A DNA stretch of 64,000 nt, from NCBI GenBank assembly GCA_964596735.1, contig CAZQVF010000001.1, positions 74,135 to 138,134 of the forward strand, written 5' to 3'. How positions within the stretch are numbered: the stretch's first letter is position 1; each line of letters begins with the position of its first letter. The notes below the pieces were generated by a model, which was not told where the DNA came from, made no database searches, and saw only the letters and a program-made list of their open reading frames with translations. This stretch comes from an uncultured Gammaproteobacteria bacterium (GTDB taxonomy: Bacteria; Patescibacteriota; Patescibacteriia; UBA2591; UBA6264). The position numbers were made by a program, and so were the translations under genes. Positions 1,609 through 52,945 of this stretch are shown here, piece by piece.

Positions 1609-1879
1609 ACAAGAAATTCTTCCAGGAGGAATAATTAACCAGCCTGGATCATCAAAAGATTATAAAACTGGGTCGTGGCGGACAAAACGACCAGTTTGGG
1701 ACAAAGATAAATGCACTCAGTGTGGTCTTTGTGTGAATTATTGTCCGGAAAATTGCATATTGTTTAAAAATGGCAAAAGAGGGGAAGCTAATTTTGATTA
1801 TTGTAAAGGATGTGGTATTTGTGCTCAGGTTTGCCCAGTTAAAGCTATTAAAATGATTAGAGAAGAACAAAAAAAATAA
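1595..1879 (+). CDS. porD: pyruvate:ferredoxin oxidoreductase delta subunit (2x[4Fe-4S])
   Basis: Two CxxCxxCxxxCP motifs (CTQCGLCVNYCP and CKGCGICAQVCP); 94 aa; overlaps the porG stop. Confidence 0.8.
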   Translation: MSKPKQEILPGGIINQPGSSKDYKTGSWRTKRPVWDKDKCTQCGLCVNYCPENCILFKNGKRGEANFDYCKGCGICAQVCPVKAIKMIREEQKK

Positions 1880-1927
1880 GAACCTGCTTTGCAGAACCTT
1901 GAAATTAAAAAACATTTTAATTGTAAT
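1879..1927 (+). promoter_or_regulatory. conserved CTTGAAATTAAA element, copy upstream of porA
   Basis: AGAACCTGCTTTGCAGAACC-TTGAAA-TTAAAAAACATTTTAAT-TGTAAT: -35-like TTGAAA, a 17-nt spacer, then a -10-like TGTAAT that abuts the ATG. Confidence 0.5.
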
Positions 1928-3103
1928 ATGACCAAGAATAAGTCAAAAACGATTACCAAAGCATTAACTGGTGGAGCCGCAGCTACTGAAGCAATGCGAC
2001 AAATAAATCCAGATGTTTTTGCGGCTTATCCCATTACCCCCCAGACTCCTATTATTCAGTCCTTTGCTCAAATGGCGGCTGACAAACGCGTAGACACAAA
2101 ATTTGTTTTAGTTGAATCAGAGCACTCAGCTATGAGTTTAGTAGTCGGAGCATCAGCCGCGGGAGGAAGAGCCATGACGGCTACGGCTAGTCAGGGATTG
2201 ATTTTAATGGCCGAGGTTTTACCAGTCGCCTCTGGAACTCGTCTACCCATTGTGATGAATATTGCTACTCGGGCTCTTTCGGCACCAATTAATATCCATA
2301 ATGACCATCAAGACGCAATGGCCGTACGCGACTTGGGATGGATTCAGATTTTTTGTGAAAACAATCAAGAAGTTTATGAAAACAATTTTCTAGCCATTCG
2401 TTTAGCTGAACATTCTCAAGTCCAATTACCGGTTATGGTCTGCCAAGATGGTTTTATTACTTCACATAACACAGAAGGAGTTGAGGTTTATTCAGATAAA
2501 GTAATAAAGAGGTTTTTAGGAGAATACAAACCCAAATATCCTCTTTTAAATTTAAAAAAGCCAGTTACCATTGGCCCTTTGGCCTTGCCTGATTATTATT
2601 TTGAAATTAGAGTCCAACTTGATCAGGCCATGAAACAGGCTAAAAAAAGATATTTAGAAATCGGTCAAGAATTAAAAAAGATTACTGGCCATGATTATCC
2701 TTATTTTGAAAAATATCACCTAGACAATGCCCAAGCCGTTATTGTTACTATGGGGTCTACGGCGGGCACCTCTAAGGTTGTTATTGATAAACTAAGAAAG
2801 CAGGGAAAAAGAGTAGGATTATTAAAAATCAATTTATTTAGACCATTTCCTTACCAAGAAGTTAACAAGGTCTTATCCAAAATTAAGTATATAGGAGTTT
2901 TAGAAAGGGCACTGGGCTTTGGCTCTTATTCTCCATTAGCCAGTGAGATTAGACATTGTTTATCTTTAAAACAAAAAGTTCAAGATTATACTTTTGGTTT
3001 AGGCGGTCGCGATATTGGACCAGGAGAAATAGAAAAAGCCTTTAAGCAATTATTAAAGGGCCAGATCAGTGACCAGATAAAATATATTGGTTTGAGAAAA
3101 TAA
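1928..3103 (+). CDS. porA: pyruvate:ferredoxin oxidoreductase alpha subunit
   Basis: ALTGGAAATEAMRQINPDVFAAYPITPQTPIIQ matches the PorA N-terminus. The ORF track starts at 1889 but that overlaps the conserved upstream motif, so the ATG at 1928 was chosen. Confidence 0.8.
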   Translation: MTKNKSKTITKALTGGAAATEAMRQINPDVFAAYPITPQTPIIQSFAQMAADKRVDTKFVLVESEHSAMSLVVGASAAGGRAMTATASQGLILMAEVLPVASGTRLPIVMNIATRALSAPINIHNDHQDAMAVRDLGWIQIFCENNQEVYENNFLAIRLAEHSQVQLPVMVCQDGFITSHNTEGVEVYSDKVIKRFLGEYKPKYPLLNLKKPVTIGPLALPDYYFEIRVQLDQAMKQAKKRYLEIGQELKKITGHDYPYFEKYHLDNAQAVIVTMGSTAGTSKVVIDKLRKQGKRVGLLKINLFRPFPYQEVNKVLSKIKYIGVLERALGFGSYSPLASEIRHCLSLKQKVQDYTFGLGGRDIGPGEIEKAFKQLLKGQISDQIKYIGLRK

Positions 3104-3111
3104 TCAAATAA

Positions 3112-3528
3112 ATGATTGTTGAGGTTAACAAATTAGTCAAATCTTGGATCAGTAAAAAGTTTTATTCTTTGGTTTTAAAACAAAGCGCTCATCTGCTCAA
3201 GGCAGAAAAGAAAATAGATAATCTTTCCGTTGCCTTAGTTAGTAGTCAAACTATTAAAAAACTTAACCATCAATATCGTCGAATTAATCAAATTACAGAT
3301 ATTCTTTCTTTTGATGACCCGCCTCAGATAATTATTTGCTGGCCACAATTAAAAAAGCAGGCCAAAGAACAAAAACATAGTCAGAAAAAAGAATTAGCTG
3401 TTCTTTTGGTTCATGGATTCCTTCATATTTTAGGGCATGACCATAAAAACAAAACGCAAGGAAATTTAATGGAAAAGCAGAGTGATAAAATTATCTCTTT
3501 GCTAAAAAAGAAAAAATTGGTAAAATAA
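3112..3528 (+). CDS. ybeY: rRNA maturation endoribonuclease YbeY
   Basis: TDILSFD and HGFLHILGHDH (H3xH5xH metal motif). Confidence 0.8.
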   Translation: MIVEVNKLVKSWISKKFYSLVLKQSAHLLKAEKKIDNLSVALVSSQTIKKLNHQYRRINQITDILSFDDPPQIIICWPQLKKQAKEQKHSQKKELAVLLVHGFLHILGHDHKNKTQGNLMEKQSDKIISLLKKKKLVK

Positions 3529-3551
3529 GATAAGAATAATCTATTAAAAAT

Positions 3552-4790: not shown

Positions 4791-4838
4791 TTATATTCTT
4801 GCACCTTTTCAAAAATATTTTAATTTTTTAAAATATAA

Positions 4839-4894
4839 GAACCTACTCACTACGTTCGTAGAACCTTGAAATTAAAATATATTGTATAGATAAT
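4839..4894 (+). promoter_or_regulatory. conserved CTTGAAATTAAA element, copy upstream of ftsZ
   Basis: AGAACCTACTCACTACGTTCGTAGAACC-TTGAAA-N17-GATAAT, about 50 nt before the ftsZ ATG. Confidence 0.5.
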
Positions 4895-4942
4895 AAGGTA
4901 ATTTAATTATAGGGAGAGGTTTCTTATATTTTTATTTTATAT

Positions 4943-6816: not shown

Positions 6817-9800
6817 ATGATTAAAGAAAATAAAACCGGACCTGATAGGGGGGAGCCAGAGAATGAAAATCAGGAGGAGATATTTTCTCTTCAAAATAAA
6901 ATATCCATTAAGAGAGAAGCCCAAGAACAAAATAAGAGATTATTAAGAGGTAGTATCTTAGAAACAACAAATGCTCAAATTGACGAAGATATAGCCGAAT
7001 TAAACAGACAATTAGAGCAACTTGGGGTTAAAGAAGAAATCAGTCCAGAAATAGGAGTAGAAGCAATAGAAGATAGAAGGGTAGAGTTAATTCAAAAAGT
7101 AGATACGGAAAAACAAGAGTTTGACGAAGAAGGTGAATTAACCCCTGATCAAGAACAAGAGATAGCGCTAGAAGAAAGAGGGGGCTTAGTTGATATTAGC
7201 GAAAAAGCAGGCGTGGTTACCCAGAAAACAAAGGAATTATTGTCCAAAGAATTGGGTTATATTGATATTGAACCAAAAGAGATTTTTGAAAAGTTGACCC
7301 CAAAAGACTTAGATGAATTACAAATGTTAATGAAAGGGGGTAAAAGATTTGAAAAATTAGAACAAGAATTAGTTGCTTCAAGAAAAGAACTCCAAGATCT
7401 TGAAGATACTGGCATTTTTTTTAATAAAAAAGAAAAAAGAAAGAAAAAGGAGCGAATGCAAGAAATAAATCAGGAAATCAAGAAAAAAGAAAAAGAAATT
7501 AAAGAACTAAAGGAAGAGGGTAATAAAGAAGAAATAATTACTTTTTATAAAAATAAAATTAATGAAATCGCTGTTAGTCAGGGAATAGAAGAAAAATTGA
7601 CTGAAGAAAAGGCAGAAGAAATTGCTAAAAATTTACAAGAGACTATTCAACAGACCATAGATGCTCAAGCTCAAGAGGTGATAGCTAAATTTGGCTTGAA
7701 AAAGTTTGGTAAGATGGCTGGTGGAATGATTAAAAACATGGGTTTAATGTTCGGAGCGGCTGCTTTAATTGGTACCTTAGGTATAGCTACTGGTGGAGCT
7801 GGTGTGGTGGTTATGGCTGGTGGTATGGCTTTAACCCGTTTAATCGAAAAAAAGATTAGCGGAAAAATAAGAGAGGAAAAAGCGAAAAAAACCAAAGAAA
7901 AGTTTAAACAGAAATTAGAAAAAGAAAAAGACAAAGTTTTGGAATCTTTTTTTAAGGCCAAAGAAAAACTTAGAGAAAAGATGAGTGGGGTAATGAGTAA
8001 TGAAATTAGAAGACAAACCAGCAAAGAAGCCTCAGCTCTTTTAAGGGAATATAGAGACGCTAAAGTAAGTGGGAATACAGAAATTATAGAATCTAATTTA
8101 ACTGAGCTAGAAAAAGAGTTTTATTTAAGCGCTTTAACTAAAATTAAAGCAGAACATCCTAAAATTAAAGATGAGGAACAGCAGCACAATATGGCTATTC
8201 AAATGGCCATGAATTTGGCTCAATATGAAAGAGGAGAAATTGAAGGTAAGAAAAGGCTAGAAGATTTAAAAAAGGATAAACCAAAAGTTTATAAATTAGT
8301 TCAAAAATTTAATTTATTACGTAGTGGTGTTACAGATAAAAAACCAGAGGGAATGAGCAAGAAAGAGACATCACTTTGGAATAAATATAAATATGATTTA
8401 ACAAGCCTAGGAGTTGGTACGGCCATCGGTATGGCGGTTAGAACTAGTGAACTAGGTAGAGTAGCTTTTGGCGCACTTGGTGGTGTCGGGATGGGTTATA
8501 TGATGGGTGAGGCCGTGGGGAAAAGAGCAGAAAAGAAAGGGATTAAAGAGATTGAAAAAATGATTGATCAGGCCGAGGAAGTTATTGAAGACATTAGTTT
8601 TCCAGCTAATGAATTGCCTGATTTGCGAAAAAATGCCACCTTAGTTCAATCTAGATTAGAGCTAGGATTGTTAGATGTAGACCCTGTTCTTAAAAGTAGG
8701 GCTGAAAATTTTATTCATAATGTCAGGCAGGTAGAATTTGCTAATCAAAAAACACTTAATAAATTATTAGAACAACAAGAAAATAATAATAAAAAGTTAG
8801 AAAAGCAGGTTGAAAAAGATGTTACCAGAATTGAAAAGAAAACTAAAAGGCGAAGGATTTTGGCAATGGTTGGAGGAGGCTTGGCTGGTGGTTTAGCTGC
8901 GGGAGCCTTTACTGAAACAGGTAAGGATATACTTAAGGATATACGTGGATTAGGAGAAGAAGGACCAGGAATAGAACCAAGAGGGCCAGGGTCAATAGAG
9001 GGCGGGATAAAAGGAACTCCTTTTGTTGCAGCTGAATTTCCAAGCGCTCCTGATAGTTTATCTGATTCAGCTCAAGAAACATACAATCATTTAAAAAATA
9101 TTATTCAAGGAACTGAGGGAAAGCTTGGTCCAACTCTTGTCCGGGCTCAGGCTGAGGATGTGGCTGAACAATTAAAAACAGCTGCCCCTGAACAATGGGA
9201 AGAAATTTTAGAAAATTATAAAAGTGGAGATGTGGTTGAAGAAACAATTAAACAAGCATCTTCAGCCCCAGAAGCCCCTGTTCCAGAGCCGGAAGAGATA
9301 AAAATAGCCCTAAATTTAGAAAAGCCAGGAATTTCAATAGACGAATCTGCTTTTGCCAAAGAAATGCCTGAATTGGCAAATGAGCTTAAAGAATTAGAAG
9401 TAAGTTTAAAGTCATTTGACCAAAATACGTTTAACCAAATCAGAAATTTGACTGAATTAACTGACACTAATCCGGTTATTAGAGATCAGGCACTAGCGTT
9501 TTTAAAGAAATTTGAAGAAGGAGCACCTCAACTTCATGAACAAATGTTGAATGAATATGATAAAACCTTTGTTCCAGAAGCTCCAGCTCCAGAAACTCCA
9601 GGAGTCTCAGAAGAAGTTACCAAACCTTCATGGGAACAAGAAGTGGGCAGAGAAGAATTTGATTTAGAAAAGATTACTCAAGAACAATTTAATCAACTTC
9701 AAGAGAATCTTCAAGAACTTGGCCCCACCCAAGCTAAAGCAGATGCTTTGACCTTAATGGAGAAATTAAAAGAAACAGACATTGATAAATACCAGAAGAT

Positions 9801-11430
9801 GATGGAAGCACATAAGACAGGATTAGTGGAACAAAGAGACGAATTAGTTAAAGAATTAACAGGAGAGCGACCAATTACTCCCCCTGAAGCTGCTCCTGTT
9901 GAACAAGAGATAACCATTCTAAAAGAGCCTGTTACAGAAGAAACAATAATTAGTCTGGAAGCTGGTTTTGCCAAAGAATTTCCTAAATTAGCTGATAAAT
10001 TAATAGAAACAGGGCACTTCAAAGTTGATGAAAGCTTAGATACATTTGATCAATCCGCTTTTAATGAGGTTCAAAAATTGGCAGACCTTACTCCGGAAAC
10101 ACCAGATGAAGAGGTTCTTTGTGGGGAAGCAAAAGACTTTTTACAAGAATTTGAAAAGAAGTTACCAGAGGTCCATGAGAGAATGTTAGATGAGTTTGAA
10201 AAAATTGTTCCTGATCATAAGGCGTCTTTAATAGCAGAGAGAGATGCATTAATAGACGAGTTAACTGGAGAAACAACTCTGGCAGTTGAACACCTTGATT
10301 ACCAGGGCGGTAACAGTGTTTGGCGTGAAGTTGAAAATCAATTACAAGGAAGAGCTGGGTTTAAAGATTTATTCACCGGCGGGGATGAAGCAGAACAAAC
10401 TCATGCTATTGACTATTTTAAAGACAAAATTGTAGCTAATCCTCAAGAATACGGGTTGGCCGAGGCGGTTGATCCAGATGAATTAACACCAGAACACTTA
10501 AAAAGTGTAGACTGGGATAAATTACTTTCTGTTAAAGAGGGAGAAATTGATAAAGCCTTCCCAAATTTAACCGAAGAAGCAAAGCAAAATATTATAGAGA
10601 ATAATAGAATTTTACAAGAATATGTTAGTAGAACAGGAGAAGCCTTAGATACAGATACGGTTGACCAGATTTTAGAAGATGTTAAAGAAGCAGGAGGCGT
10701 TGATGAATATTTAAAACCAGAAGAAATAGTAAGACCAGAAGAAGTTGAACAACCAGAACCGGTTGATTTAAGTGGGATGAAGTGGGAAGACATGACACCA
10801 GCCGAACAAGAATTACTTGAAAATTGGGGAGAATATTTATTCATAGGTGACCGGGGCAGAGCAGCTGAGGCAGCTCAAGAGGCAGCTAAGGATTTTCTAG
10901 ATAGTCAACCACCAGAAGTGTATAACAAATATTCTGATGTTAAAGAAGTAATTCAGTATATTCGCATGGATGATTTAAATGAAGGCCTTTTCAATCGTGG
11001 CGCAGATACAGAAGACTTAATGGCCGGTGTTCAAAAATTAGCTGAAACACATGATCTCTCTGATACGGAGACCAAGCTATTTTCTAATTGGTTGGCCGGA
11101 GAAGACGGTATATTAAAAAAGAATGATTTTAGGCATGTAATAACAAATAAAATTATTGACCCAGAAAAGTTTAGTGATGAAATACAATTTTTTAAAGAGG
11201 GATACGGGGGCTCAGAAGAACTTCCCGACACTTTGACTTGGGAACCAAGACATATTTATACTGGAGAAGGGGCAGACAGAATAAAGCAATTGGTTAATAT
11301 AAGGGCAGTTGAAGGTGGTTGTCAAATAGATTCTACTGGTGATGGAATGCCTGATCAAGATGTTGTTCATCAAAGATTAGCAGTTAAACAAATGATGAGC
11401 AAAGAAGTGATAAATACAGCAGAGGCATAA
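6817..11430 (+). CDS. giant acidic coiled-coil protein with Gly-rich hydrophobic segments (hypothetical)
   Basis: 1537-aa uninterrupted ORF with a K/E-rich coiled-coil N-terminus. It has two glycine-rich hydrophobic stretches (GAAALIGTLGIATGGAGVVVMAGGMALT; ILAMVGGGLAGGLAAGAF) and internal ~100-aa repeats (FAKEMPELANEL... / FAKEFPKLADKL...; ELTGERPITPPEAAPVEQ / ELTGETTLAVE). Confidence 0.7.
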   Translation: MIKENKTGPDRGEPENENQEEIFSLQNKISIKREAQEQNKRLLRGSILETTNAQIDEDIAELNRQLEQLGVKEEISPEIGVEAIEDRRVELIQKVDTEKQEFDEEGELTPDQEQEIALEERGGLVDISEKAGVVTQKTKELLSKELGYIDIEPKEIFEKLTPKDLDELQMLMKGGKRFEKLEQELVASRKELQDLEDTGIFFNKKEKRKKKERMQEINQEIKKKEKEIKELKEEGNKEEIITFYKNKINEIAVSQGIEEKLTEEKAEEIAKNLQETIQQTIDAQAQEVIAKFGLKKFGKMAGGMIKNMGLMFGAAALIGTLGIATGGAGVVVMAGGMALTRLIEKKISGKIREEKAKKTKEKFKQKLEKEKDKVLESFFKAKEKLREKMSGVMSNEIRRQTSKEASALLREYRDAKVSGNTEIIESNLTELEKEFYLSALTKIKAEHPKIKDEEQQHNMAIQMAMNLAQYERGEIEGKKRLEDLKKDKPKVYKLVQKFNLLRSGVTDKKPEGMSKKETSLWNKYKYDLTSLGVGTAIGMAVRTSELGRVAFGALGGVGMGYMMGEAVGKRAEKKGIKEIEKMIDQAEEVIEDISFPANELPDLRKNATLVQSRLELGLLDVDPVLKSRAENFIHNVRQVEFANQKTLNKLLEQQENNNKKLEKQVEKDVTRIEKKTKRRRILAMVGGGLAGGLAAGAFTETGKDILKDIRGLGEEGPGIEPRGPGSIEGGIKGTPFVAAEFPSAPDSLSDSAQETYNHLKNIIQGTEGKLGPTLVRAQAEDVAEQLKTAAPEQWEEILENYKSGDVVEETIKQASSAPEAPVPEPEEIKIALNLEKPGISIDESAFAKEMPELANELKELEVSLKSFDQNTFNQIRNLTELTDTNPVIRDQALAFLKKFEEGAPQLHEQMLNEYDKTFVPEAPAPETPGVSEEVTKPSWEQEVGREEFDLEKITQEQFNQLQENLQELGPTQAKADALTLMEKLKETDIDKYQKMMEAHKTGLVEQRDELVKELTGERPITPPEAAPVEQEITILKEPVTEETIISLEAGFAKEFPKLADKLIETGHFKVDESLDTFDQSAFNEVQKLADLTPETPDEEVLCGEAKDFLQEFEKKLPEVHERMLDEFEKIVPDHKASLIAERDALIDELTGETTLAVEHLDYQGGNSVWREVENQLQGRAGFKDLFTGGDEAEQTHAIDYFKDKIVANPQEYGLAEAVDPDELTPEHLKSVDWDKLLSVKEGEIDKAFPNLTEEAKQNIIENNRILQEYVSRTGEALDTDTVDQILEDVKEAGGVDEYLKPEEIVRPEEVEQPEPVDLSGMKWEDMTPAEQELLENWGEYLFIGDRGRAAEAAQEAAKDFLDSQPPEVYNKYSDVKEVIQYIRMDDLNEGLFNRGADTEDLMAGVQKLAETHDLSDTETKLFSNWLAGEDGILKKNDFRHVITNKIIDPEKFSDEIQFFKEGYGGSEELPDTLTWEPRHIYTGEGADRIKQLVNIRAVEGGCQIDSTGDGMPDQDVVHQRLAVKQMMSKEVINTAEA

Positions 11431-14593: not shown

Positions 14594-14600
14594 CTATAAG

Positions 14601-14635
14601 CAGAGCTTGAAATTAAAAAACATTTTAATTATAAT
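14601..14635 (+). promoter_or_regulatory. conserved CTTGAAATTAAA element, copy upstream of nusG
   Basis: CAGAGC-TTGAAA-TTAAAAAACATTTTAAT-TATAAT, a perfect -35/N17/-10; the ATG is 6 nt after the -10, so a leaderless transcript is possible. Confidence 0.6.
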
Positions 14636-15614: not shown

Positions 15615-15616
15615 CC

Positions 15617-15650: not shown

Positions 15651-15651
15651 T

Positions 15652-37499: not shown

Positions 37500-37502
37500 A
37501 AT

Positions 37503-40071: not shown

Positions 40072-40110
40072 AAATAAAGAAAAAGCCGTTTTGTAGCGGT
40101 TTGAAAATTT

Positions 40111-40965: not shown

Positions 40966-41019
40966 GAACCCTTCGCTACGCTCAGGAACCTTGAAATTAA
41001 AACTTTATTTTATAAATAT
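40964..41019 (+). promoter_or_regulatory. conserved CTTGAAATTAAA promoter-like element (internal to the array)
   Basis: AAGAACCCTTCGCTACGCTCAGGAACCTTGAAATTAAAACTTTATTTTATAAAT in the 74-nt gap between paralogs 12 and 13; same architecture as the copies at 1879, 4839 and 19449. Confidence 0.55.
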
Positions 41020-41039
41020 TAAGGTAGTTTAATTATAAT

Positions 41040-41891
41040 ATGACTAAAAAAGAATCAACTAGCAAAAAATTTATAGATCCCTGGAAAACAATGGCAAATA
41101 ATTGGAATCTATTTTGTTCTCCTGGTCGACCTTCATCAAGAAATATCTTAGATTATGAAAAACTTTTTCAATCTACAGTTAAAAAAAGAAAAAATCCCAA
41201 GATATTAATTTTAGGGGCAACGCCAGAACTGAGAGACCTTTTAAATAAATTTAAAAAAGCAGAAGTATGTATTTGTGATATTAATATAGAAATGATTTTA
41301 GCCATGACAGAATTGATGAAAAAGAAAAAAGCAGTGGAAAGGGAAATATGGATGAAAGCCAATTGGAAAGACATGCCTTTAAAGAAAGATTATTATGATG
41401 TTATCTTGGGCGATTACATTACCAGCGCTTTTCCCTTAAAAGATCACGCAGAATTATTTAATAAATTAAGATCAGTTTTAAATAAAAATGGTTGTTTTGT
41501 TAGCAGGATCTTTTTTTACAATCCAGATGCAGTAGAAGATTTTAATCAAGTAGCGGATAAATATTTAAACAAAAAAGTAACCCCTAGGACAATAACTGAT
41601 TTTTGGATGGAGGCATATTTCCGCGGTCCGTATAGAAAAGGGGGAGTTCTTTCAGGCAAGAGATTTAAAGAAAAAATGAATATTTACGTAAAAAAGAACC
41701 CCAAAATCAAGCCACTTTTCAATAAACTTGATCAAATATTATTGCCATATAATAAGGATTATAATTTTTGTAGCTTAAAACAAACTGAAAAATCATTAAA
41801 GAGATATTTTGTAATCAAAGAAAAATTACCAGAGATTAACACCACCTTAAGCAAAAATACATTTATATATAAATTATCTCCAAAGAAATAA
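41040..41891 (+). CDS. array paralog 13 (LGATPE MTase-like)
   Basis: ILILGATPELRDLLNKF, CICDINIEMILAM, ANWKDMPLKKDYYDVILGDYITSAF, hydrophobic core block after it. Confidence 0.85.
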   Translation: MTKKESTSKKFIDPWKTMANNWNLFCSPGRPSSRNILDYEKLFQSTVKKRKNPKILILGATPELRDLLNKFKKAEVCICDINIEMILAMTELMKKKKAVEREIWMKANWKDMPLKKDYYDVILGDYITSAFPLKDHAELFNKLRSVLNKNGCFVSRIFFYNPDAVEDFNQVADKYLNKKVTPRTITDFWMEAYFRGPYRKGGVLSGKRFKEKMNIYVKKNPKIKPLFNKLDQILLPYNKDYNFCSLKQTEKSLKRYFVIKEKLPEINTTLSKNTFIYKLSPKK

Positions 41892-41892
41892 T

Positions 41893-42744
41893 ATGACAAA
41901 ACAAATTCATGGCACAAAATATTGGACAGATTTAGCTCAATGGTGGCGAAAGGTTGCTCCACCGGTTAGACCATCAAAGTCGGATATTAAGATTTATGAG
42001 AGATTTTTAAAAAAGGTAATTAAGAACAAGAAACAACCCAAAATTTTAATTTTAGGAGCGACACCGGAAATGCGAGATTTAGCCGCTAAGTATAGAGCGG
42101 AAACAACTGTTTGTGATATTAGTTTGGAAATGATAATAGCTATGATTCAGTTGATGACTCATAAAAAGGCTGGCCAAAAAGAAGTTTGGGTTAAAGCAAG
42201 TTGGGTGACAGTACCATTGAAACATAATTATTACGATGTGATTTTAGCAGATGGGGTGATATGTAATATCCCCTGGTCAGAAGTAAATCAATGGTGGAAA
42301 CATTTAAATCAATTACTTAAACCAAAGGGTGTTTTTATCACCCGAGCCTTCTGTTTTACCTCTAGAAATGAGATTGATAAAAGTTTGAATAATCTTATTA
42401 AGAAGATTTTAAAAAAGAGAAATCCTTTAGCAACCGATTTTGGTCAATTGAAAATAACTTTAGAAATCGCAAGTTATAATTCTAAAACTAGAACGGGCAG
42501 TAATGCCAAGTATAGAGAATTATTTTTTAAACATATTGAGAATTTTTCAGTTTTTCAAACAAAGGCAAACAAGATTTATCGTCAACTTGTTAAGATTTAT
42601 CCACCTAAGCCAGTTAAAGTTTGGCGAATACCAACAAGAGCTCAGAGAGAAAAAGAAATTAAAAAGTATTTTAAGATTATTTTTGGTATTCCTTCTCCAT
42701 CTTTTCCAACTATACCGACAATTTATTTATTAAAGAAAAAATAA
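41893..42744 (+). CDS. array paralog 14 (LGATPE MTase-like)
   Basis: ILILGATPEMRDLAAKY, TVCDISLEMIIAM, ASWVTVPLKHNYYDVILADGVICNI, LLKPKGVFITRAF. Confidence 0.85.
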   Translation: MTKQIHGTKYWTDLAQWWRKVAPPVRPSKSDIKIYERFLKKVIKNKKQPKILILGATPEMRDLAAKYRAETTVCDISLEMIIAMIQLMTHKKAGQKEVWVKASWVTVPLKHNYYDVILADGVICNIPWSEVNQWWKHLNQLLKPKGVFITRAFCFTSRNEIDKSLNNLIKKILKKRNPLATDFGQLKITLEIASYNSKTRTGSNAKYRELFFKHIENFSVFQTKANKIYRQLVKIYPPKPVKVWRIPTRAQREKEIKKYFKIIFGIPSPSFPTIPTIYLLKKK

Positions 42745-42745
42745 C

Positions 42746-43621
42746 ATGCCTAAGAAAAAACAAGAAAAAAGATTTATTGCCCCCTGGAAAGCCTATGCTG
42801 CTCGTTGGCAAAAATACTGTACTCCACCAGGCCGGCCATCTAAACAAGCCATGGCCATGTATCGCAAATTTGCCAAACAATCTTTTTCTAATTTAAAACG
42901 CAAACCACGAACCTTGGTTTTAGGAGCGACTCCAGAGGCAAGAGATGTTTTAGTTGGGCTTAAAGCAGAGGTCAGTATTATTGATTTTAATATGGAAATG
43001 ATTTTAGCCATGACAGAATTGGTTAAAAAGAAAAATCCCAATGAGATTATAGTTAAAGCAAATTGGCTTAATATGCCCTTCCCCCCTAATTATTATGACG
43101 CTGTGTTAGGGGATCTTGTTTTATGCAATGTGCCCGGACCATTACAAGCCAGGTTTTTAAAAGAAGTCAAAAGAGTTTTAAAACCGAAAGGATATTTTAT
43201 CACTAAAATGCATGTTATTCCTAACGATTGGCAGTTTAAACCCATTGATTGGGTTTTGGATAAATATGCTAAAATCCCTGTTTGTAAAAATACAGCTATT
43301 GAACTATTTGGGTTTCTTCATAACACCATTTATCAGCCAAAAACCCATATAATGGATATTAGCCTAATTAGAAAAGGATTAACAAAGTATTGGAAAAAAG
43401 GAAAGTATAAACATCCTAGTGCCAAGATTAGTAAATTACTTAATCATATTTGGGAGATGTTTAAGCCCATGGACAAAACATGGTGTACAGGCTATGAAAA
43501 AGAAATTAGCAAACAGGTTTCCCAATATTTTAAAATCCGAAAGAAAATAGTTTTAAACGATTGTTATTTCCGTGAGATTGATGAATCATTTCCTTTTTGG
43601 GTTTGCCAAGTAAAAAAATAA
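42746..43621 (+). CDS. array paralog 15 (LGATPE MTase-like)
   Basis: TLVLGATPEARDVLVGL, SIIDFNMEMILAM, ANWLNMPFPPNYYDAVLGDLVLCNV, VLKPKGYFITK. Confidence 0.85.
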   Translation: MPKKKQEKRFIAPWKAYAARWQKYCTPPGRPSKQAMAMYRKFAKQSFSNLKRKPRTLVLGATPEARDVLVGLKAEVSIIDFNMEMILAMTELVKKKNPNEIIVKANWLNMPFPPNYYDAVLGDLVLCNVPGPLQARFLKEVKRVLKPKGYFITKMHVIPNDWQFKPIDWVLDKYAKIPVCKNTAIELFGFLHNTIYQPKTHIMDISLIRKGLTKYWKKGKYKHPSAKISKLLNHIWEMFKPMDKTWCTGYEKEISKQVSQYFKIRKKIVLNDCYFREIDESFPFWVCQVKK

Positions 43622-43622
43622 T

Positions 43623-44465
43623 ATGTTAAAACCCCATGAGCTAAATAGATCTTATTGGATGCGAAGTGCTGAGATTTGGCGCAAGTTAAAGCCGCCAGAA
43701 AGGCCCAGTAAAGAGGAAATGGGGATTTATGAAAAACACCTTAAAGAAATATTGCAGTTTAAAGGTAATAAATTAAGAGCTGTTATTCTTGGAGCTACTC
43801 CAGAAATTCGAGATTTATTAGCCAGATATAAAGTTTCAGACGTTACTATTGTTGATGTTAATCCTAATATGGTTCGGGCGATGAAAGAATTACTTAAAAT
43901 CTCAAAGGGCAGAGAGAAAATAGTCATTGCTAGTTGGTTAAATACGGGGTTGCCGTCTCATAAATATGATGTGGTTTTCTGTGATCACGGTACAGCCCAC
44001 ATCAAGTTTCTTCAGTGGCCTAAATTTTTTAAGGAACAAAAAAGATTTTTAAAAAAGAATGGCTTTGTTTTACATAATATCGTTACTCGGCCATTTAAGG
44101 AGGGCATCACGGTAAGTGATTTAGTTAAAATTTATAAGAAAAATAAATTAAAATTTTCTCGTCTTGATAAATTTTATTATAATTATTTAGTTTTTCTAAA
44201 ATTGAAAGATGTGAATGGAAAACACCACAAAGATTTAGGAGTTCTTGATAAAAATTTAAAAAGTTTTATCAATAAAAAGGTGATTGATAAAAATGATTAT
44301 CAAAAATTAAAGACTCCATGGGAAGATGCAAAAATTGCTCTTCCTCCGCAGGAGGTTGTTGATGAGATTTTTCAGAAATTTTTTAATTTAAAAACATTAG
44401 AACATGGATCAAAACACCCGATTTATAGTTGTCATCAAATATACTTTGGTCAAGTAAAAAAATAA
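43623..44465 (+). CDS. array paralog 16 (LGATPE MTase-like)
   Basis: AVILGATPEIRDLLARY, TIVDVNPNMVRAM, ASWLNTGLPSHKYDVVFCDHGTAHI, FLKKNGFVLHN. Confidence 0.85.
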   Translation: MLKPHELNRSYWMRSAEIWRKLKPPERPSKEEMGIYEKHLKEILQFKGNKLRAVILGATPEIRDLLARYKVSDVTIVDVNPNMVRAMKELLKISKGREKIVIASWLNTGLPSHKYDVVFCDHGTAHIKFLQWPKFFKEQKRFLKKNGFVLHNIVTRPFKEGITVSDLVKIYKKNKLKFSRLDKFYYNYLVFLKLKDVNGKHHKDLGVLDKNLKSFINKKVIDKNDYQKLKTPWEDAKIALPPQEVVDEIFQKFFNLKTLEHGSKHPIYSCHQIYFGQVKK

Positions 44466-44470
44466 AGTCT

Positions 44471-44764
44471 ATGAAAATTAAAATACCACCTGTTTCCATT
44501 GACACTGACAAACTAATTAAGCGCTGTGGTTATGCTGAGTTAAGAAGAAAAACAGGGGAGATAAGTTATGTTCGTCGTTTACGTGGTTATCAATACCCAC
44601 GCTTTCATGTTTATATTGAAAATGGATATTTTAATCTTCACTTAGATCAAAAGGCCCCTTGTTATCAAGGGTCTTCAGCTCACGCCGGAGAATATGAGGG
44701 AGAAATTTTAGTAAAAGAAAAAGAAAGAATAAAAGAGATCATTAATAAGTATAGAAATGAATAA
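44471..44764 (+). CDS. hypothetical 97-aa protein, unrelated insert within the array
   Basis: MKIKIPPVSIDTDKLIKRCGYAEL...RFHVYIENGYFNLHLDQKAPCYQGSSAHAGEYEG; none of the paralog blocks are present. The track calls it from 44429, overlapping the upstream gene; the ATG at 44471 was preferred. Confidence 0.4.
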   Translation: MKIKIPPVSIDTDKLIKRCGYAELRRKTGEISYVRRLRGYQYPRFHVYIENGYFNLHLDQKAPCYQGSSAHAGEYEGEILVKEKERIKEIINKYRNE

Positions 44765-46427
44765 AAAAGGTTGGACAAAAAGATGGAAAAATGTTTCTGA
44801 ATGGTGGGGAAAGTTAAATTCACCCTGGACCCCTTCTTTGGGAGAGTATAAAATCTATGAAAAGTTTTTGAAAAAGACAACAAATTTTAAAGATAAAGAT
44901 AGAAAAATGCTAATTTTAGGAGCGACGGCATTGTTAAGAGAGCTGGGGTATAAGTATGGCTATCAAATCACCTTGATTGATATAAATCAAGAAATGGTTA
45001 AAGATCAAACTAGATTTTTAGGCCTTAAAATTCCTAAAGAAAAAGTGGTTATTGGTGACTGGTTAGAAATGGATAAAATTTTTAAAAACCAACAATTTGA
45101 CGTTATCGCAGCAGATCATTCAGTTATTAATGTTAAATTTAAAAATTGGCCCAAACTTTATAAAAATATACAAAATCTTTTAAAACCTGATGGTTCGGTT
45201 CTTTGGGCAACAACTGTTTATAATCATCGAAAGCATGGTCAAGTAAAAGACTTGGTAAAAAGTTATCGGCCCAATAAATCAGAAAAAGACAGATTTATTA
45301 GAATTTATAAATTATTTGGTAATCCAAAATTTCATGATAAAAACCATGGTTTTCATTTTGGCCAAGCTGACAAGGAAATAGGAAAATTAGCCAAGAAAAA
45401 AAGTTTTTCCAAAGAGCAAATCAATGAAATGAAGTTGAATTTAGGAAACTGGACTTCAGTAATATTACAAAAAAAGAAATTTGAAGATTTTACAAAAAAA
45501 TATTTTAAAATAATTGATAATCAGAAAGATAAAAGTCATCATTTCTATAAATATCAGCAACTTTATCTTTTAAAGCACAAAAAATCACCTAAGAGAAGTG
45601 TTTCATGGAAAACTATTGCCGAAGTCTGGCCTGATTTAAAGCCGCCTTTAAGACCCTCAAAAGGAGAAATGAGGATTTATGAGAGATATTTAAAACAGAT
45701 TATTAAACAAAAGAAAGGTAAACTAACCGCCTTATTATTTGGTTTAACCACAGAAATCAGGGATATGTTGGCAAAATATGGGGTATTTGTCACCATGATT
45801 GATGTTAATCCGGAAATGGTTAAAGTGACAGAATCTTTATGTCAACAGAAAAACAGAAAAGAAAAAGTGGTTATTGATGACTGGTTAAAGTTTAATCTTA
45901 ATAAAAAGTTTGACATTATTTTGGGAGACCATGTTTTTGGTAATGTAGAGTTTAAAAAACAGCAGAGGCTTTGGAGGCAAATCAAAAAACATTTGAAATC
46001 CGACGGGTATTTGATTACAGACGTTCATTTAAGAGCTTTAAACAAGAAAATAGGTTTAAAGCAGTTTATTGAAAAATATAGAAGAAGTAAAATATTAAAA
46101 AAGAACCGAGAAGAAAAATGGTATTGGCTTTATTCTTTGGTTTATAACAATCCTGTTTTCTTTAAAAGGAAAATTAAATCAGTTTTATGGCCCTCAGTTG
46201 AAGAATTATTAAGGCAAACCAAGAAAAGAAATATTGATTTAAGTATGGCAGAAGCAAGAGAGATTGCTGATGACGTTCACATAGACAGGCCTTGTTGGTT
46301 TATGCTTCCGATGAAAAAGGAATTTGAAAAAGAATTAAAAAAATATTTTACAATGATTGATTCAGATATTAATAGAAAACACTCGGTTTATCGCTGTTAT
46401 CGCATTTATTTTGCTAAGTCAAAATAA
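44757..46427 (+). CDS. array paralogs 17+18 fused into one 556-aa two-domain protein
   Basis: Both halves carry the full block set. N-half: WKNVSEWWGKLNSPWTPSLGEYKIYEKF...MLILGATALLRELGYKY..TLIDINQEMVKD..GDWLEMDKIFKNQQFDVIAADHSVINV..LLKPDGSVLWA. C-half: WKTIAEVWPDLKPPLRPSKGEMRIYERY..ALLFGLTTEIRDMLAKY..TMIDVNPEMVKV..DDWLKFNLNKKFDIILGDHVFGNV..HLKSDGYLITD. Confidence 0.85.
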   Translation: MNKKGWTKRWKNVSEWWGKLNSPWTPSLGEYKIYEKFLKKTTNFKDKDRKMLILGATALLRELGYKYGYQITLIDINQEMVKDQTRFLGLKIPKEKVVIGDWLEMDKIFKNQQFDVIAADHSVINVKFKNWPKLYKNIQNLLKPDGSVLWATTVYNHRKHGQVKDLVKSYRPNKSEKDRFIRIYKLFGNPKFHDKNHGFHFGQADKEIGKLAKKKSFSKEQINEMKLNLGNWTSVILQKKKFEDFTKKYFKIIDNQKDKSHHFYKYQQLYLLKHKKSPKRSVSWKTIAEVWPDLKPPLRPSKGEMRIYERYLKQIIKQKKGKLTALLFGLTTEIRDMLAKYGVFVTMIDVNPEMVKVTESLCQQKNRKEKVVIDDWLKFNLNKKFDIILGDHVFGNVEFKKQQRLWRQIKKHLKSDGYLITDVHLRALNKKIGLKQFIEKYRRSKILKKNREEKWYWLYSLVYNNPVFFKRKIKSVLWPSVEELLRQTKKRNIDLSMAEAREIADDVHIDRPCWFMLPMKKEFEKELKKYFTMIDSDINRKHSVYRCYRIYFAKSK

Positions 46428-46432
46428 ATATC

Positions 46433-46461
46433 TCGACAAATATCTTATTTTTACATATAAT
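46433..46461 (+). promoter_or_regulatory. sigma70-type promoter (TCGACA-N17-TATAAT)
   Basis: TCGACA, a 17-nt spacer, then TATAAT in the 66-nt gap before the Nif3-like gene. Confidence 0.5.
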
Positions 46462-46493
46462 TAAGAACAAGATTTATTTTTAACTATATATTT

Positions 46494-47444
46494 ATGACTA
46501 TTGAACAAATTTACAATTTAGCCATTAAAATGGGCATGAAAAGCGATTTAAGAGGGGAGAGACAGGTAAAAAAAATGTTAACCCATTTAAAGAAAAGGTA
46601 TGAAAAAATGCCAGGAAAACAAAAGAAAGAATTTGACAAAGAAAAATTAACAAATCCATATTCTGATACCCGCATATTAAACAAAACAAAAAAACCAATT
46701 AAAAAGATTTTAACTGGTATTGATATGGAAGTAAGTGAACTACTTTTAGCCGAACAATTAGGTGGTGTTGACTTGATTTTAGCTCACCACCCCAGAGGCA
46801 TAGGATTAACCGGATTAGATGATGTGATGAAACTTCAGGCAGATGTTTTAAATCTTTATGGTGTGCCAATTAATATTGCTGAAAGTCTGGTTCGTTTAAG
46901 AAGAGGAGAGGTTAGTCGTTCAATTTCTTCGGCTAATCATAACCGAGTCGTTGATGCAGCTAAACTATTAAAAACAGGATATATGTGCATGCATACCCCA
47001 GCTGATAATTGTGTGGCTAGTTTTTTAAACAAATTGATTAAAAAGAAAAAACCAGAATATGTAGAAGATCTATTAGATCTATTAAAAACCATTCCTGAAT
47101 ATCAACAAGCCATGAAAATAGGAGCTGGACCAAGACTTTTTGCTGGTAAAGAAATAAATCACTGCGGCAAAATTGCTTTAACAGAAATCACTGGCGGAAC
47201 AGAGGGGTCTTCAAAGGTTTATGAAAAAATGAGTCAGGCAGGAATAGGCACAGTAGTGGCCATGCACATGAGTGAAAAAAATCGCAAAGAAGCAGAAAAA
47301 GCCCACATCAATGTCGTTATTGCCGGTCATATTGCTTCAGACTCCATTGGCATGAACCTAATATTAGATGAATTAGCCAAGAAAAAAATAGAAATCATCC
47401 CATGTTCTGGATTAATTAGAGTGGAGAGGTTTAAGAAAAGATAA
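46494..47444 (+). CDS. NIF3/YqfO-family (GTP cyclohydrolase 1 type 2-like) dinuclear-metal protein
   Basis: KKILTGIDMEVSELLLAEQLGGVDLILAHHPRG resembles the NIF3 N-terminal block ending in HHP; distal GHIASDS histidine block; the stop is 2 nt before the next paralog's ATG. Confidence 0.5.
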   Translation: MTIEQIYNLAIKMGMKSDLRGERQVKKMLTHLKKRYEKMPGKQKKEFDKEKLTNPYSDTRILNKTKKPIKKILTGIDMEVSELLLAEQLGGVDLILAHHPRGIGLTGLDDVMKLQADVLNLYGVPINIAESLVRLRRGEVSRSISSANHNRVVDAAKLLKTGYMCMHTPADNCVASFLNKLIKKKKPEYVEDLLDLLKTIPEYQQAMKIGAGPRLFAGKEINHCGKIALTEITGGTEGSSKVYEKMSQAGIGTVVAMHMSEKNRKEAEKAHINVVIAGHIASDSIGMNLILDELAKKKIEIIPCSGLIRVERFKKR

Positions 47445-47446
47445 AT

Positions 47447-48289
47447 ATGTCAGTACAACAGAATAAAAAAGACATGTGGTTTGAAAGTATTGCCCAGCAA
47501 TGGTCTATTTATGCGCCACCAGTCACTCCTTCTAAGTCAGAATGCCAGATTATTAAAAAGTGTATTCTTAATAAAAAAAGGAAAAATCTTCGGATATTAG
47601 TTTTAGGGGCAACGCCAGAATTTCGTGATTTAGCCCATGAACTAAAAGCAGAAGTTACTTGTGTAGACGTTTCTGTGTCAATGCTTCAGGGGTTGGTTCA
47701 TTTAATGAAACAAAAAAATAAAGCTGATCAGGAGATATGGTTTAAAGCCGATTGGCTAACCGTTCCCTTGGCAGAGAATTATTTTGATTTTGTTTTGGGT
47801 GATTTTGTTATTGTTAATTTGCCGATTAATCTGCAGCCAAAGTTTTTTTCAAAGATTAAGCATATTTTGAGGAAGAATGGGTTTTTTATCACTCGTCACC
47901 TTTTACCATTGGACTCATTTGAGCCTTTTCCTGAGCTTATTGGCCAAGCATTAAAGAATAAGAGTTTTAACAAGAGAATGATAAACAGTTTTTCATTAGA
48001 TGTTTTGCAGTCTGTTTATGAAAAAAGAACAAAGGTGATGAAAGTAAAAAAGGTTTATTCTGAGTTTAAAAAACTTATAATTCAGGAAAAAAATAAACAG
48101 AGAAGAAAAAGGATTAAAGATTTGTTTGAAATTTATCAAGAATATTATCCTCTTGGTAAAGCTTGGTGGGGCTTATTAAAAAATCCAGGAGAAAGAGTAA
48201 TGAAGAAATATTTTAAAATTCAAGATATTAGATATGGACAGGACCATGACCGTGTGGATTATTGTCCAATTTATTTTTTAAGAAAATAA
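47447..48289 (+). CDS. array paralog 19 (LGATPE MTase-like)
   Basis: ILVLGATPEFRDLAHEL, TCVDVSVSMLQGL, ADWLTVPLAENYFDFVLGDFVIVNL, ILRKNGFFITR, ...IYFLRK. Confidence 0.85.
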   Translation: MSVQQNKKDMWFESIAQQWSIYAPPVTPSKSECQIIKKCILNKKRKNLRILVLGATPEFRDLAHELKAEVTCVDVSVSMLQGLVHLMKQKNKADQEIWFKADWLTVPLAENYFDFVLGDFVIVNLPINLQPKFFSKIKHILRKNGFFITRHLLPLDSFEPFPELIGQALKNKSFNKRMINSFSLDVLQSVYEKRTKVMKVKKVYSEFKKLIIQEKNKQRRKRIKDLFEIYQEYYPLGKAWWGLLKNPGERVMKKYFKIQDIRYGQDHDRVDYCPIYFLRK

Positions 48290-51882: not shown

Positions 51883-51903
51883 AATACAGTTTTTTCAACT
51901 GGC

Positions 51904-52383
51904 TTATTCTTGTGGAAGAATACTATATTCTTTTATTGCCTGGTATAAACCAGTAATAGTTCCTCCAACTAAAGCCCAGGTTCGAGCGCGATTAAACAAG
52001 TACCAAAAGTATTGTCCTTCATTAGAATGATTAAGAATTTGTTCCGGAACTGTCCAAAATCCACTAAGAAAACCGAGCACCCAAGCGATGCAGAATGCGA
52101 CTAGTCCCCAACCTAGAAATTTGTCTAAAACTCTGGGACAGGCCCAATCTTTATTACAAAAGTACTGGTTGGCGAAAGAGGTAGGAATAAAGAAAATTCC
52201 AAATCCCAAACACAGTGTGGACAAAAAAACATTCTTAACAACAACACAGAGTACAATTACGATTGCTGAACCTAATAAAAGTAGAAAGAACTTTACGAAT
52301 TTCCAATATCTTTTCATTATTTGTGCCTCCTTGACATATTCATTATCTGTTCGTAGTATAGCAGATTTTTGCCTGTTTGTCAA
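51904..52383 (-). CDS. hypothetical integral membrane protein
   Basis: Three to four predicted TM helices (FLLLLGSAIVIVLCVVV; LCLGFGIFFIP; LVAFCIAWVLGFLSGF). Confidence 0.5.
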   Translation of the reverse strand: MTNRQKSAILRTDNEYVKEAQIMKRYWKFVKFFLLLLGSAIVIVLCVVVKNVFLSTLCLGFGIFFIPTSFANQYFCNKDWACPRVLDKFLGWGLVAFCIAWVLGFLSGFWTVPEQILNHSNEGQYFWYLFNRARTWALVGGTITGLYQAIKEYSILPQE

Positions 52384-52455
52384 GACTGACTATCCCATGA
52401 CAAAAATAAATATATATGTTAAAATAAGTTTGTTAAATTATTAAACTTAATAGTT

Positions 52456-52815
52456 ATGGAAAAAGAAAATGTTGTTGAAAAAATTGCTTCAGCTATTGAT
52501 GCGGCTAAAAAGCCAAACTTAATAGCTAGGTTTTTAGGACTAATTTCTTATTTAGGAATCCTTTGTGTGATTCCCATTATTTTAAAGAGTAAAAGTGACT
52601 TTGTCCGTTTTCACGCCCGTCAAGGATTAGTTTTATTCATGGCCGAAATCGTTTTCACCCTAATTTGGATTATTCCCTTTATTGGCTGGTTTATTGGTTT
52701 TATCGGCTGGATTATCTGTTTTGTTTTCTCCTTAATTGGTTTGGTCAGAGCAATTGCTGGTCAAGAATGGAAGATGCCAGTTTTGTATAGATTTACAAAG
52801 AAAATTAGAGTTTAA
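52456..52815 (+). CDS. hypothetical small membrane protein
   Basis: 119 aa with three hydrophobic helices (LGILCVIPIIL; LVLFMAEIVFTLIWIIPFIGWFIGFIGWIICFVF). Confidence 0.45.
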   Translation: MEKENVVEKIASAIDAAKKPNLIARFLGLISYLGILCVIPIILKSKSDFVRFHARQGLVLFMAEIVFTLIWIIPFIGWFIGFIGWIICFVFSLIGLVRAIAGQEWKMPVLYRFTKKIRV

Positions 52816-52919
52816 TTATTTAGTTAGAAAATTATTAATTAACAATTTTTTGAATTGAAATAAAATCAATTCAAATTTAACTTATAATTAAATTACCCTA
52901 ATTTATATATATAATAAAA

Positions 52920-52945
52920 TTTAATTTCAAGCTTAGCTTATAAAT
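52920..52945 (-). promoter_or_regulatory. inverted copy of the conserved CTTGAAATTAAA element
   Basis: The + strand reads TTTAATTTCAAGCTTAGCTTATAAAT immediately upstream of the ppsA ATG at 52948. Confidence 0.4.

Follow-up and report, generated by a model that had tools for sequence, protein, structure and literature searches.

We identified eight copies of a short repeat in a 64,000-nucleotide (nt) stretch of bacterial DNA (contig CAZQVF010000001.1 of assembly GCA_964596735.1, positions 74,135 to 138,134), referred to below as the window. The copies belong to a family of modular units with two hairpins, and we are fairly confident that this is a mobile repeat family of bacteria of the Candidate Phyla Radiation (CPR) type, which targets AT-rich gene borders. 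A first-pass annotation of the window had described the same copies as a promoter-like element reused in both orientations upstream of unrelated genes, perhaps the binding site of a global regulator or a nucleoid protein. The repeated, non-random and intergenic character of the motif was borne out, and all eight copies were found at the positions annotated. A promoter or regulator site held upstream of given genes was not: in related genomes the unit is missing, lies at another point of the spacer, is inverted or differs in copy number. The identity between copies appears to reflect common descent of a mobile repeat and not convergent regulatory selection. The resemblance to a promoter is a property of the arms of one hairpin, which read TTGAAA on the left and TATAAG/T on the right and lie 17 nt apart in the short form of the unit.

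We found four exact matches to the 14-mer AGCTTGAAATTAAA in the window (14604 and 15619 on the plus strand, 28302 and 52920 on the minus strand), against 0.00 expected in dinucleotide-preserving shuffles of the 64-kb sequence. Four further copies, all on the plus strand (1896, 4863, 19476 and 40988), have ACC instead of AGC. The core common to all eight is A[G/C]CTTGAAATTAAA; the 14-mer itself, annotated as shared by every copy, is exact in only half of them. When three or fewer mismatches are tolerated, the window contains 32 matches and 42 are expected, which is chance level. A profile hidden Markov model (HMM) built from the wider family recovered all eight known copies and gave no significant match in the window beyond them. 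Non-coding DNA makes up just 7.7% of the window, yet it holds 8/8 copies (P ~1e-9). Three of the copies are identical across 29 nt, including what would be the promoter spacer. Independent promoters do not behave in this way, and the copies therefore represent a repeat family.

Taking the window together with the loci gathered from other genomes (960 kb), we found 235 distinct instances of the unit in 125 loci. The layout of a unit is TAAG-AAC-[hairpin X]-AAC-CTTG-AAATTAAA-[loop of 4-5 or ~26 nt]-TTTAATTA-TAAG. Units are 40-78 nt long and often tandem, and the arrays comprise one unit (126 arrays), two (27), three (8), four (2) or five (2). The first hairpin, hairpin X, differs with the length of the linker in which it lies. 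Linkers of 21/23 nt form a GC-rich stem of 4-5 bp with a triloop, those of 27/29 nt have, in addition, an internal loop (TC/CT, invariant) and an inner stem of 2 bp closed by a triloop, and the 9-nt linker forms a mini-hairpin (AAGC-NNN-GCTT). A small CTGC-N3-GCAG hairpin had been assigned to the four best window copies; it is present only in those at 1896 and 19476, and at 4863 and 40988 a longer member of this hairpin family is found instead. GC-rich palindromes (e.g., CCCGCC-TGC-GGCGGG) are nested in the loop of hairpin X, as if inserted, in four loci of other genomes (L009, 2700-2900; L165, 14060-14110; L191, ~4860-4900; and L226, ~7090-7140).

The second hairpin is AT-rich. In the short form it consists of AATTAAAA-aaca-TTTTAATT and has the exact TTGAAA-N17-TATAAT geometry (window copies 1896, 14604 and 19476). 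The annotated combination of an A-U hairpin in the spacer with this geometry is thus correct for the short copies and incorrect for the decayed copy at 15619 and for the four long forms among the eight (4863 and 40988, forward; 28302 and 52920, inverted), which have ~26 nt between the arms. Across the family the arms are separated by 4-5, ~13 or ~26 nt. At the base of the AT hairpin a G.T and an A.A mismatch are nearly invariant, and because of this asymmetry the left arm reads TTGAAA and the right arm TATAAG. The loop of the long form contains TATAnA and TTAAGGTA at fixed distances from the 3' end. Other genomes encode further modules of the same grammar, for example CTTG-[CTATTCGCTACGCTCATAG]-TAAG, and arrays may mix such modules.

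Related genomes do not conserve the unit upstream of the same genes; its presence, insertion point, orientation and number vary at orthologous spacers. The relatives of the window among the fetched loci are L152, L133, L193, L160, L238, L229 and L215, with 72-93% nucleotide identity. Between ftsA and ftsZ, a single unit lies forward in the window; in L133 a single unit sits ~20 nt further along and points the other way, and L152 has four inverted units upstream. These are three different points, and every genome is empty where the other two are filled, which indicates three independent insertions. The unit of the window in this spacer (4836-4913) appears to be a lineage-specific insertion. The secE-nusG spacer of L160 is just 6 nt long and free of units; a short form occupies this spacer in the window and a decayed long form in L152. 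Between corA and murB, L160 is without a unit and keeps TGTTAAAAT 7 nt before its ATG, and the native murB promoter located upstream of the window unit is conserved in L160. The nusG-rplK spacer contains two units in L152 and is empty in the window, and positions 28886-28904 of the window are empty where L238 is filled. Copy number differs as well: upstream of the dikinase gene the window has one unit and L238 has four in tandem, and upstream of the gene at 28364 the numbers are one and three. Additional filled/empty pairs were found in other lineages (L122/L168, L165/L142 and L191/L114), and six filled/empty pairs have readable junctions. The rplA unit of L193 is preceded by DNA unlike that of the window, so that a rearrangement breakpoint lies at this unit. 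Gain, loss, inversion and change of copy number at orthologous sites are what defines a mobile, or at least a highly dynamic, repeat.

This turnover bears on the explanation closest to the original description, namely that the unit is a conserved sigma-70 promoter module (a "mobile promoter") that drives the downstream gene, partly as leaderless mRNA. We consider this very unlikely. The element carries near-consensus sigma-70 hexamers, as annotated: the short form is TTGAAA-N17-TATAAT/G, and in a promoter scan 14607-14635 scores 11/12 and 4866-4894 scores 10/12. A full RpoD with regions 2, 3 and 4 is encoded in the window. The two arms of the AT hairpin also depart from symmetry at exactly the bases that give a -35-like word in one arm and a -10-like word in the other, with the basal G.T and A.A kept. 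However, promoter-like matches are common by chance (75 in the window vs 58 +/- 7 in shuffles), and in the long forms, which are the majority, the conserved TATAnA is mostly 13-15 nt from TTGAAA. The orientation is not consistently toward genes. Between co-directional genes 47 arrays are forward and 39 reverse, ~40% of arrays point at the 3' end of a gene, and short forms face gene starts in eight cases and gene ends in seven. Tandem arrays of two to five units and gain or loss between close relatives are unexpected for a conserved promoter, and murB has kept its own promoter upstream of the unit.

Leaderless transcription is a reasonable idea for this organism, since -10-like hexamers are located 6-8 nt before the ATG in 67 of 324 unrelated genes, and leaderless-type spacing is thus common; the Shine-Dalgarno peak is smaller. 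Most genes are without a Shine-Dalgarno sequence, both in the window and among the 324 genes of related loci. In the units, however, the distance from TATAAN to ATG peaks at -5, -3 and 0 nt, with one case each at 4, 5 and 7 nt. We rejected the leaderless-promoter reading of the 3' TATAAN on this spacing, overlap or a gap of 0 nt compared with 6-8 nt in native genes. The first-pass annotation had already voiced doubt over -10 boxes that abut the start codon and over inverted copies, and both doubts were justified, the latter because the two inverted copies among the eight cannot serve the genes that they precede. Individual copies may be active all the same. A sequence such as the TTGAAA-N17-TATAAT located 5 nt upstream of nusG would probably be used by a sigma-70 holoenzyme, and promoter or terminator activity is probably a side effect of individual copies, as in Correia elements (PMC2649163), and not the reason for the repeat.

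Both hairpins show compensatory changes. In the 23-nt class of hairpin X, 97% of cells are paired and four of the five pairs are compensatory, and none of 500 shuffles was as good; one of these pairs is A-T in 8 instances, G-C in 8 and C-G in 5. The 29-nt class is 93% paired, with compensatory changes in five of the six pairs. For pair 13 of the AT hairpin, we counted T-A 84 times, C-G 36 times and A-T 22 times, with Watson-Crick pairs in 143/208 instances vs 79 +/- 6 in shuffled data, and pair 10 shows compensations from A-T to G-C. Rare variants have wholly different but perfect stems of 13-14 bp (e.g., AATTAGATACTCG...CGAGTATCTAATT). The covariation proves selection for intrastrand pairing, be it in RNA or in DNA.

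Compensatory changes in both helices would also be expected if the unit were a structured RNA acting in the transcript, as a processing or stabilising hairpin, a substrate of RNase III or YbeY, a terminator in the reverse orientation or a leader with a TAAGG Shine-Dalgarno word. Many units lie inside operon-like strings of genes and hence must be transcribed. The reverse complement of hairpin X followed by TTCTTAT was flagged as terminator-like at 1895-1883, and units whose end forms an ATG have the conserved TAAGG 10 nt before it. An RNA role is nevertheless very improbable in our view. The two orientations relative to transcription are about equally frequent, and presence varies at orthologous sites. 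G.T pairs, tolerated in RNA helices, are not favoured over A.C (15 vs 22 in hairpin X and 9 vs 24 in the AT hairpin). The consensus energy given by RNAalifold is just -1.09 kcal/mol. When folded as single-stranded DNA (ssDNA), short forms beat shuffles (z ~ -3), but long forms fold no better than shuffled sequence. There was also no match to Rfam: at the gathering score the window contains only three tRNAs, and a four-unit array gave nothing even at E <= 1.

Sequence words outside the helices are highly conserved. The invariant mismatches and junction words (TC/CT, G.T, A.A, GAAC, CTTG and TAAG) suggest recognition of a DNA hairpin or cruciform by a protein. Such non-helical words, including the TC/CT internal loop and the TATAnA...TTAAGGTA of the long loop, could also be read as an array of binding sites or an architectural element for a DNA-binding protein (nucleoid-associated, IHF/HU-like or a global regulator) that the host keeps for chromosome organisation. 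A protein site would function independently of orientation, which matches the near-neutral orientation of the units, and their AT-rich and palindromic composition suits this reading. It is highly improbable nonetheless, because the positions are not conserved between relatives, and the variable arm spacing (4-5, ~13 or ~26 nt) and variable modules are unlike a fixed dimer site. The compensatory changes in the stems indicate intrastrand pairing rather than fixed readout of a duplex, and no candidate protein was identified.

The placement of the units agrees with insertion at gene borders. Of the arrays, 163/165 are intergenic. In nine cases the 5' TAA of the unit is the stop codon of the upstream gene, and in many cases its 3' end overlaps or abuts an ATG, as TTAATTATG or TATAAT ATG. 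In these genomes the last 20 nt before the ATG are 85-90% A+T, and 69% of genes have T at position -1. AT-rich, target-like words are thus concentrated at gene borders, and they are also seen where genes join as ...ATAAT ATG, which would explain why the arrays are intergenic, why the TAA of a unit serves as a stop codon and why its end abuts an ATG. In the filled/empty pairs, the inserted segment always extends from (T)AAGAACC... to ...TTAATTATAA(G). Directly 5' of the insert, the host DNA is similar to the 3' end of the unit, though the register varies; insertions were seen at ACTAT|G, ATATTATAA|T, TGGTATAAT|T (a TGn-extended -10 box), AATTTAATA|G, CTTTAAT|CATG and AATTATAAG|G. Direct repeats of ~3-10 nt flank the insertions, coincide with the unit's 3' end and vary in register.

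We propose that new units enter AT-rich sites that resemble the 3' end of the unit (...TTAATTATAA or ...TAT|G), and that such sites would be concentrated at the stop codons, start codons and -10 boxes of these genomes. Two routes are conceivable. A trans-acting enzyme that recognises the hairpins and the GAAC/CTTG/TAAG junctions may drive insertion and the growth and shrinkage of arrays. Alternatively, slippage or template switching between the flanking direct repeats may do so.

Several observations weigh against the mobile-repeat reading. The ends of the unit have no terminal inverted repeats, as only the internal arms CTTGAAATTAAA/TTTAATTATAAG are inverted (10/12), and we found no clear target duplication of fixed length in the filled/empty pairs, so that the marks of classical cut-and-paste transposition are missing. 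We saw no transposase or recombinase in the window or among 811 clustered flanking open reading frames (ORFs), judged by eye; the recurrent families of flanking ORFs look like housekeeping genes (UvrA-like, EF-G-like, glycosyltransferase-like and others, again by eye). Because the junctional direct repeats overlap with the end of the unit itself, some "empty" sites may be deletion products and not sites that were never occupied. Near-identical strains differ in unit number, which could be due to collapse of repeats in short-read assembly. Long forms face gene starts 71 times and gene ends 43 times, a modest excess that would fit promoters, and their conserved loop words TATAnA and TAAGG leave room for some selection on expression signals. 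Finally, the loci were gathered with patterns that force CTTGAAATTAAA and TTAATTATA, and the conservation of those words is partly built in.

A more specific mechanism would be that of ssDNA elements resembling repetitive extragenic palindromes (REPs) or palindrome-associated transposable elements (PATEs), moved by an HUH tyrosine transposase of the REP-associated tyrosine transposase (RAYT) or IS200-IS605 TnpA type. The left end would then be signalled by hairpin X and the right end by the AT hairpin, and the element would insert on the 3' side of an ATAA-type target. Two subterminal hairpins, the lack of terminal inverted repeats and the lack of a clear target duplication suit this mechanism, and ATAAG is found at the left flank and also at the right end. 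The hairpin irregularities (TC/CT loop, basal G.T and A.A) are conserved, and in REPs such irregularities matter for cleavage by RAYT (PMC3733652). However, the units lack the GTAG or CGTC tag by which REPs are defined (PMC3733652), and by eye we saw no Y1 transposase near any unit in the 811 flanking ORFs. Strand-specific transposition of ssDNA gives a strong orientation bias. The arrays show no such bias, either relative to gene direction or relative to GC skew (G-rich strand, 52 arrays; C-rich strand, 61; p = 0.45), which argues against a single-strand route of the IS200/IS605 kind, and we consider the mechanism very unlikely. Integron attC sites were considered separately and rejected, as the junction words do not fit their R''/R' cores (RYYYAAC and GTTRRRY). 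The GAAC-CTTG junction resembles the target tetranucleotides of IS91, which we take to be GAAC/CAAG (GTTC/CTTG); this is a lead only.

We also considered a bolder form of the mobile-repeat reading, in which the unit is a self-propagating hairpin module of a new kind. It would follow a recursive slot-in grammar (TAAG-AAC-[hairpin]-AAC-CTTG-[hairpin]-TAAG), spread by an undescribed enzyme or a replication-linked route, as the lack of terminal inverted repeats, of the GTAG tag and of strand bias would suggest, and insert at stop/start borders by homology to its own 3' end. This is unlikely, though its consequences would be considerable. Forward units would deliver a -35/-10 pair and a TAAGG ribosome-binding word to genes that mostly lack a Shine-Dalgarno sequence, and expression would be rewired genome-wide in CPR bacteria.

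The mobile repeat family is not limited to this genome. With the first, loose pattern (CTTGAAATTAAAN{5,35}TAATTRTA, one genome per species), most matches were chance matches in AT-rich genomes, and only ~15 loci among the matches listed were true homologues. These were recognised by sequence that the pattern does not force, namely the loop ...TATTGTATAnAAATTAAGGTA... and the upstream GAACC-hairpin-GAACC block. They were found in metagenome-assembled genomes (MAGs) titled Patescibacteria (L009, L014, L114, L034, L065 and L077) and in further MAGs (L050, L046, L082, L084, L089, L098, L108 and L119), frequently in tandem and frequently at contig ends. A more specific pattern retrieved at least 120 stretches from ~40 datasets of a metagenome collection, many with two to four copies. 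The collections of viral contigs, phages and plasmids that were searched contained no match to the unit. From the titles of the MAGs that carry the repeat, the hosts are likely to be CPR/Patescibacteria-type bacteria. The literature on the sequence words, on miniature inverted-repeat transposable elements (MITEs) or REPs together with CPR, and on promoters or leaderless transcripts together with Patescibacteria yielded nothing on this element, and the family is apparently undescribed so far and widespread.

The window sequence itself is present at >99% identity in several JGI, ENA and Logan metagenome assemblies. Contigs break in units and arrays: L005 and L006, from other assemblies of the same population, begin at 14608 inside the nusG unit, and the ends of several MAG contigs, including L009, L034 and L065, lie within arrays.

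The eight units of the window differ in form and in their fit to the surrounding genes. Four of them fill the whole gap from stop codon to ATG, and two of the four also supply the stop codon with their own TAA. The first unit (1877-1925, forward) is a short form in the porD-porA spacer and reads TAAG-AAC-[CTGC-TTT-GCAG]-AAC-CTTG-AAATTAAAA-aaca-TTTTAATT-GTA. The upstream ORF (1595-1879) takes its stop codon from the TAA of this unit, the 3' end of which abuts the corrected porA start (ATG 1926). The unit forms two hairpins as ssDNA (z = -3.06), and a decayed copy is kept at the orthologous site in L152.

The unit between ftsA and ftsZ (4836-4913, forward) is a long form with a GC hairpin of the 29-nt class (CTAC-TC-AC-TAC-GT-TC-GTAG), followed by CTTGAAATTAAA, a 25-nt loop and TTTAATTATAGG. 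The window also has a Shine-Dalgarno-like GGGAGAGG ~25 nt upstream of the ftsZ ATG (4914-4942). L152 (~8164-8220) has the same word, followed by an upstream ORF of ten codons (ATG TTT TTT AAT TTC AAT GTT TTG AAA ATA TAA). The inverted unit of L133 was inserted beside GGGAGAGG, and the word resembles the reverse complement of the unit's 5' end.

Two units lie in the cluster of secE, nusG, rplK and rplA. The secE-nusG spacer contains a short form (14596-14635, forward) with the mini-hairpin linker ATAAG-CAGAG-CTTG and TTGAAA-N17-TATAAT, which leaves 5 nt before the nusG ATG (14641). The rplK-rplA spacer is filled by a decayed unit (15612-15651, forward) from the TAA stop to the corrected rplA start (ATG 15652). 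This unit has no stable fold as ssDNA and is also decayed in L152. The rplK-rplA spacer of L160 (9628-9651) has another small tandem repeat, three copies of AACATTGG, at the place of the decayed unit, and the same repeat occurs in L009 (~2640-2680) as AACATTAT/AACATTGG.

Upstream of murB, a short form (19457-19507, forward; fold z = -2.98) is located between the native promoter (19423-19450, TTGCCA-N16-TAAAAT with TG) and the probable murB start (ATG 19539). In the ORF listing or automated call, murB (TTG 19434 or 19479) and rplA (TTG 15604) have TTG starts that fall inside or upstream of the units.

Among the remaining units, one long form with a mini-hairpin linker (28264-28324, minus strand) is inverted with respect to both flanking plus-strand genes, rtcB and a gene for an 85-aa protein at 28364. 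The archease and RtcB RNA ligase genes are adjacent and overlap (26369-28235). Another long form (40963-41039, forward), with the hairpin CCT-TC-GC-TAC-GC-TC-AGG, is located between methyltransferase paralogues 12 and 13 and is the best HMM match (E = 8.5e-18). Its TAA is the stop codon of the ORF at 40111-40965, and its TATAAT abuts ATG 41040. The other junctions between these paralogues have 1-4 nt, read ...ATAAT ATG and contain no unit. The array (30591-48289) comprises ~18 tandem paralogues of ~280-300 aa with weak Pfam matches to S-adenosylmethionine (SAM)-dependent methyltransferases, most of them 1-4 nt apart, and includes a fusion of double length (44757-46427). The last unit (52881-52942, minus strand) is an inverted long form, the 5' end of which is 5 nt (AATTT) from the ATG (52948) of the pyruvate phosphate dikinase gene. 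This gene (52948-56625) is split by an intein with a LAGLIDADG homing-endonuclease domain at residues ~439-831.

The window has 33% G+C and a positive GC skew throughout. It encodes many housekeeping proteins (FtsA/FtsZ, GyrB, SecE-NusG-L11-L1, MurB, S13-S11-S4-RpoA-L17, GroEL, DnaG and RpoD). RpoA (22996-23880) has 294 aa and Pfam matches to its N-terminal part only (RNA_pol_L and RNA_pol_A_bac), with no family of the alpha C-terminal domain listed, and this domain may be missing or very divergent. An ORF of 1537 aa (6817-11430) has no Pfam family at E <= 0.001.

Genomes of CPR/Patescibacteria are ~1 Mb in size, densely packed and thought to be poor in mobile DNA. Eight units in 64 kb, widespread across metagenomes and turning over between relatives, are unexpected in such reduced genomes and would be a notable source of plasticity. 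Short-read assemblies break at the units, gene callers are misled by them (murB and rplA), and they can pass for conserved promoters. As they insert at stop/start borders and -10 boxes and carry promoter-like and Shine-Dalgarno-like words, they may change how adjacent genes are expressed, in the manner of Correia elements in Neisseria. Together, the GAAC/CTTG/TAAG junction words and the conserved hairpins, whose mismatches are fixed, define what a putative enzyme would act on.

We file the units as small non-autonomous palindromic repeats, a general kind that is well known elsewhere, and assign them to no named family. The BOX elements of Streptococcus pneumoniae consist of the modules boxA, boxB and boxC of ~45-60 nt, are intergenic and foldable, and can affect the expression of neighbouring genes. 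The units share with BOX the modular build, with one module repeated a variable number of times, the intergenic location and the predicted folding, but they are built from other modules, belong to another host group and do not resemble BOX in sequence. When non-homologous genes of one genome are preceded by highly similar sequences, these are called putative mobile promoters (PMPs; PMC3488235), a class defined by position upstream of genes. The units fall under this operational definition, which is what the first-pass annotation effectively detected. Unlike PMPs, nearly half of them point away from the adjacent gene start, and they form arrays and have a conserved hairpin structure.

Like the units, REPs, with the related bacterial interspersed mosaic elements (BIMEs) and REPINs, are short imperfect palindromes that are extragenic, occur in high copy number as single elements or mosaic clusters, vary in abundance between relatives and conserve hairpin mismatches (PMC3733652). 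The palindromes found here also agree with the 20-40 nt expected of REP/BIME. They end in a GTAG or CGTC tag and are reported from Proteobacteria, Cyanobacteria, Chloroflexi and the Planctomycetes-Verrucomicrobia-Chlamydiae (PVC) group, among others (PMC3733652). In contrast, the junction words here are GAAC, CTTG and TAAG, one hairpin is extremely AT-rich, the clusters are direct tandem repeats, and we saw no RAYT in the unit flanks (811 flanking ORFs, judged by eye).

[quoted passage not shown] CREE are 104-157 bp long, have 26-bp terminal inverted repeats, a target duplication and an IHF site, and are confined to Neisseria (PMC2649163). The units described here differ in their length of 40-78 nt, the absence of terminal inverted repeats, the two separate hairpins, the direct tandem arrays and the CPR-type hosts, and share no sequence with CREE. 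CREE have no known cognate transposase; their ends can give rise to sigma-70 promoters, and in transcripts they fold into hairpins (PMC2649163). Like CREE, the units are small, non-coding, multi-copy and intergenic, occur in either orientation and in long and short (internally deleted) forms, and vary in presence between strains.

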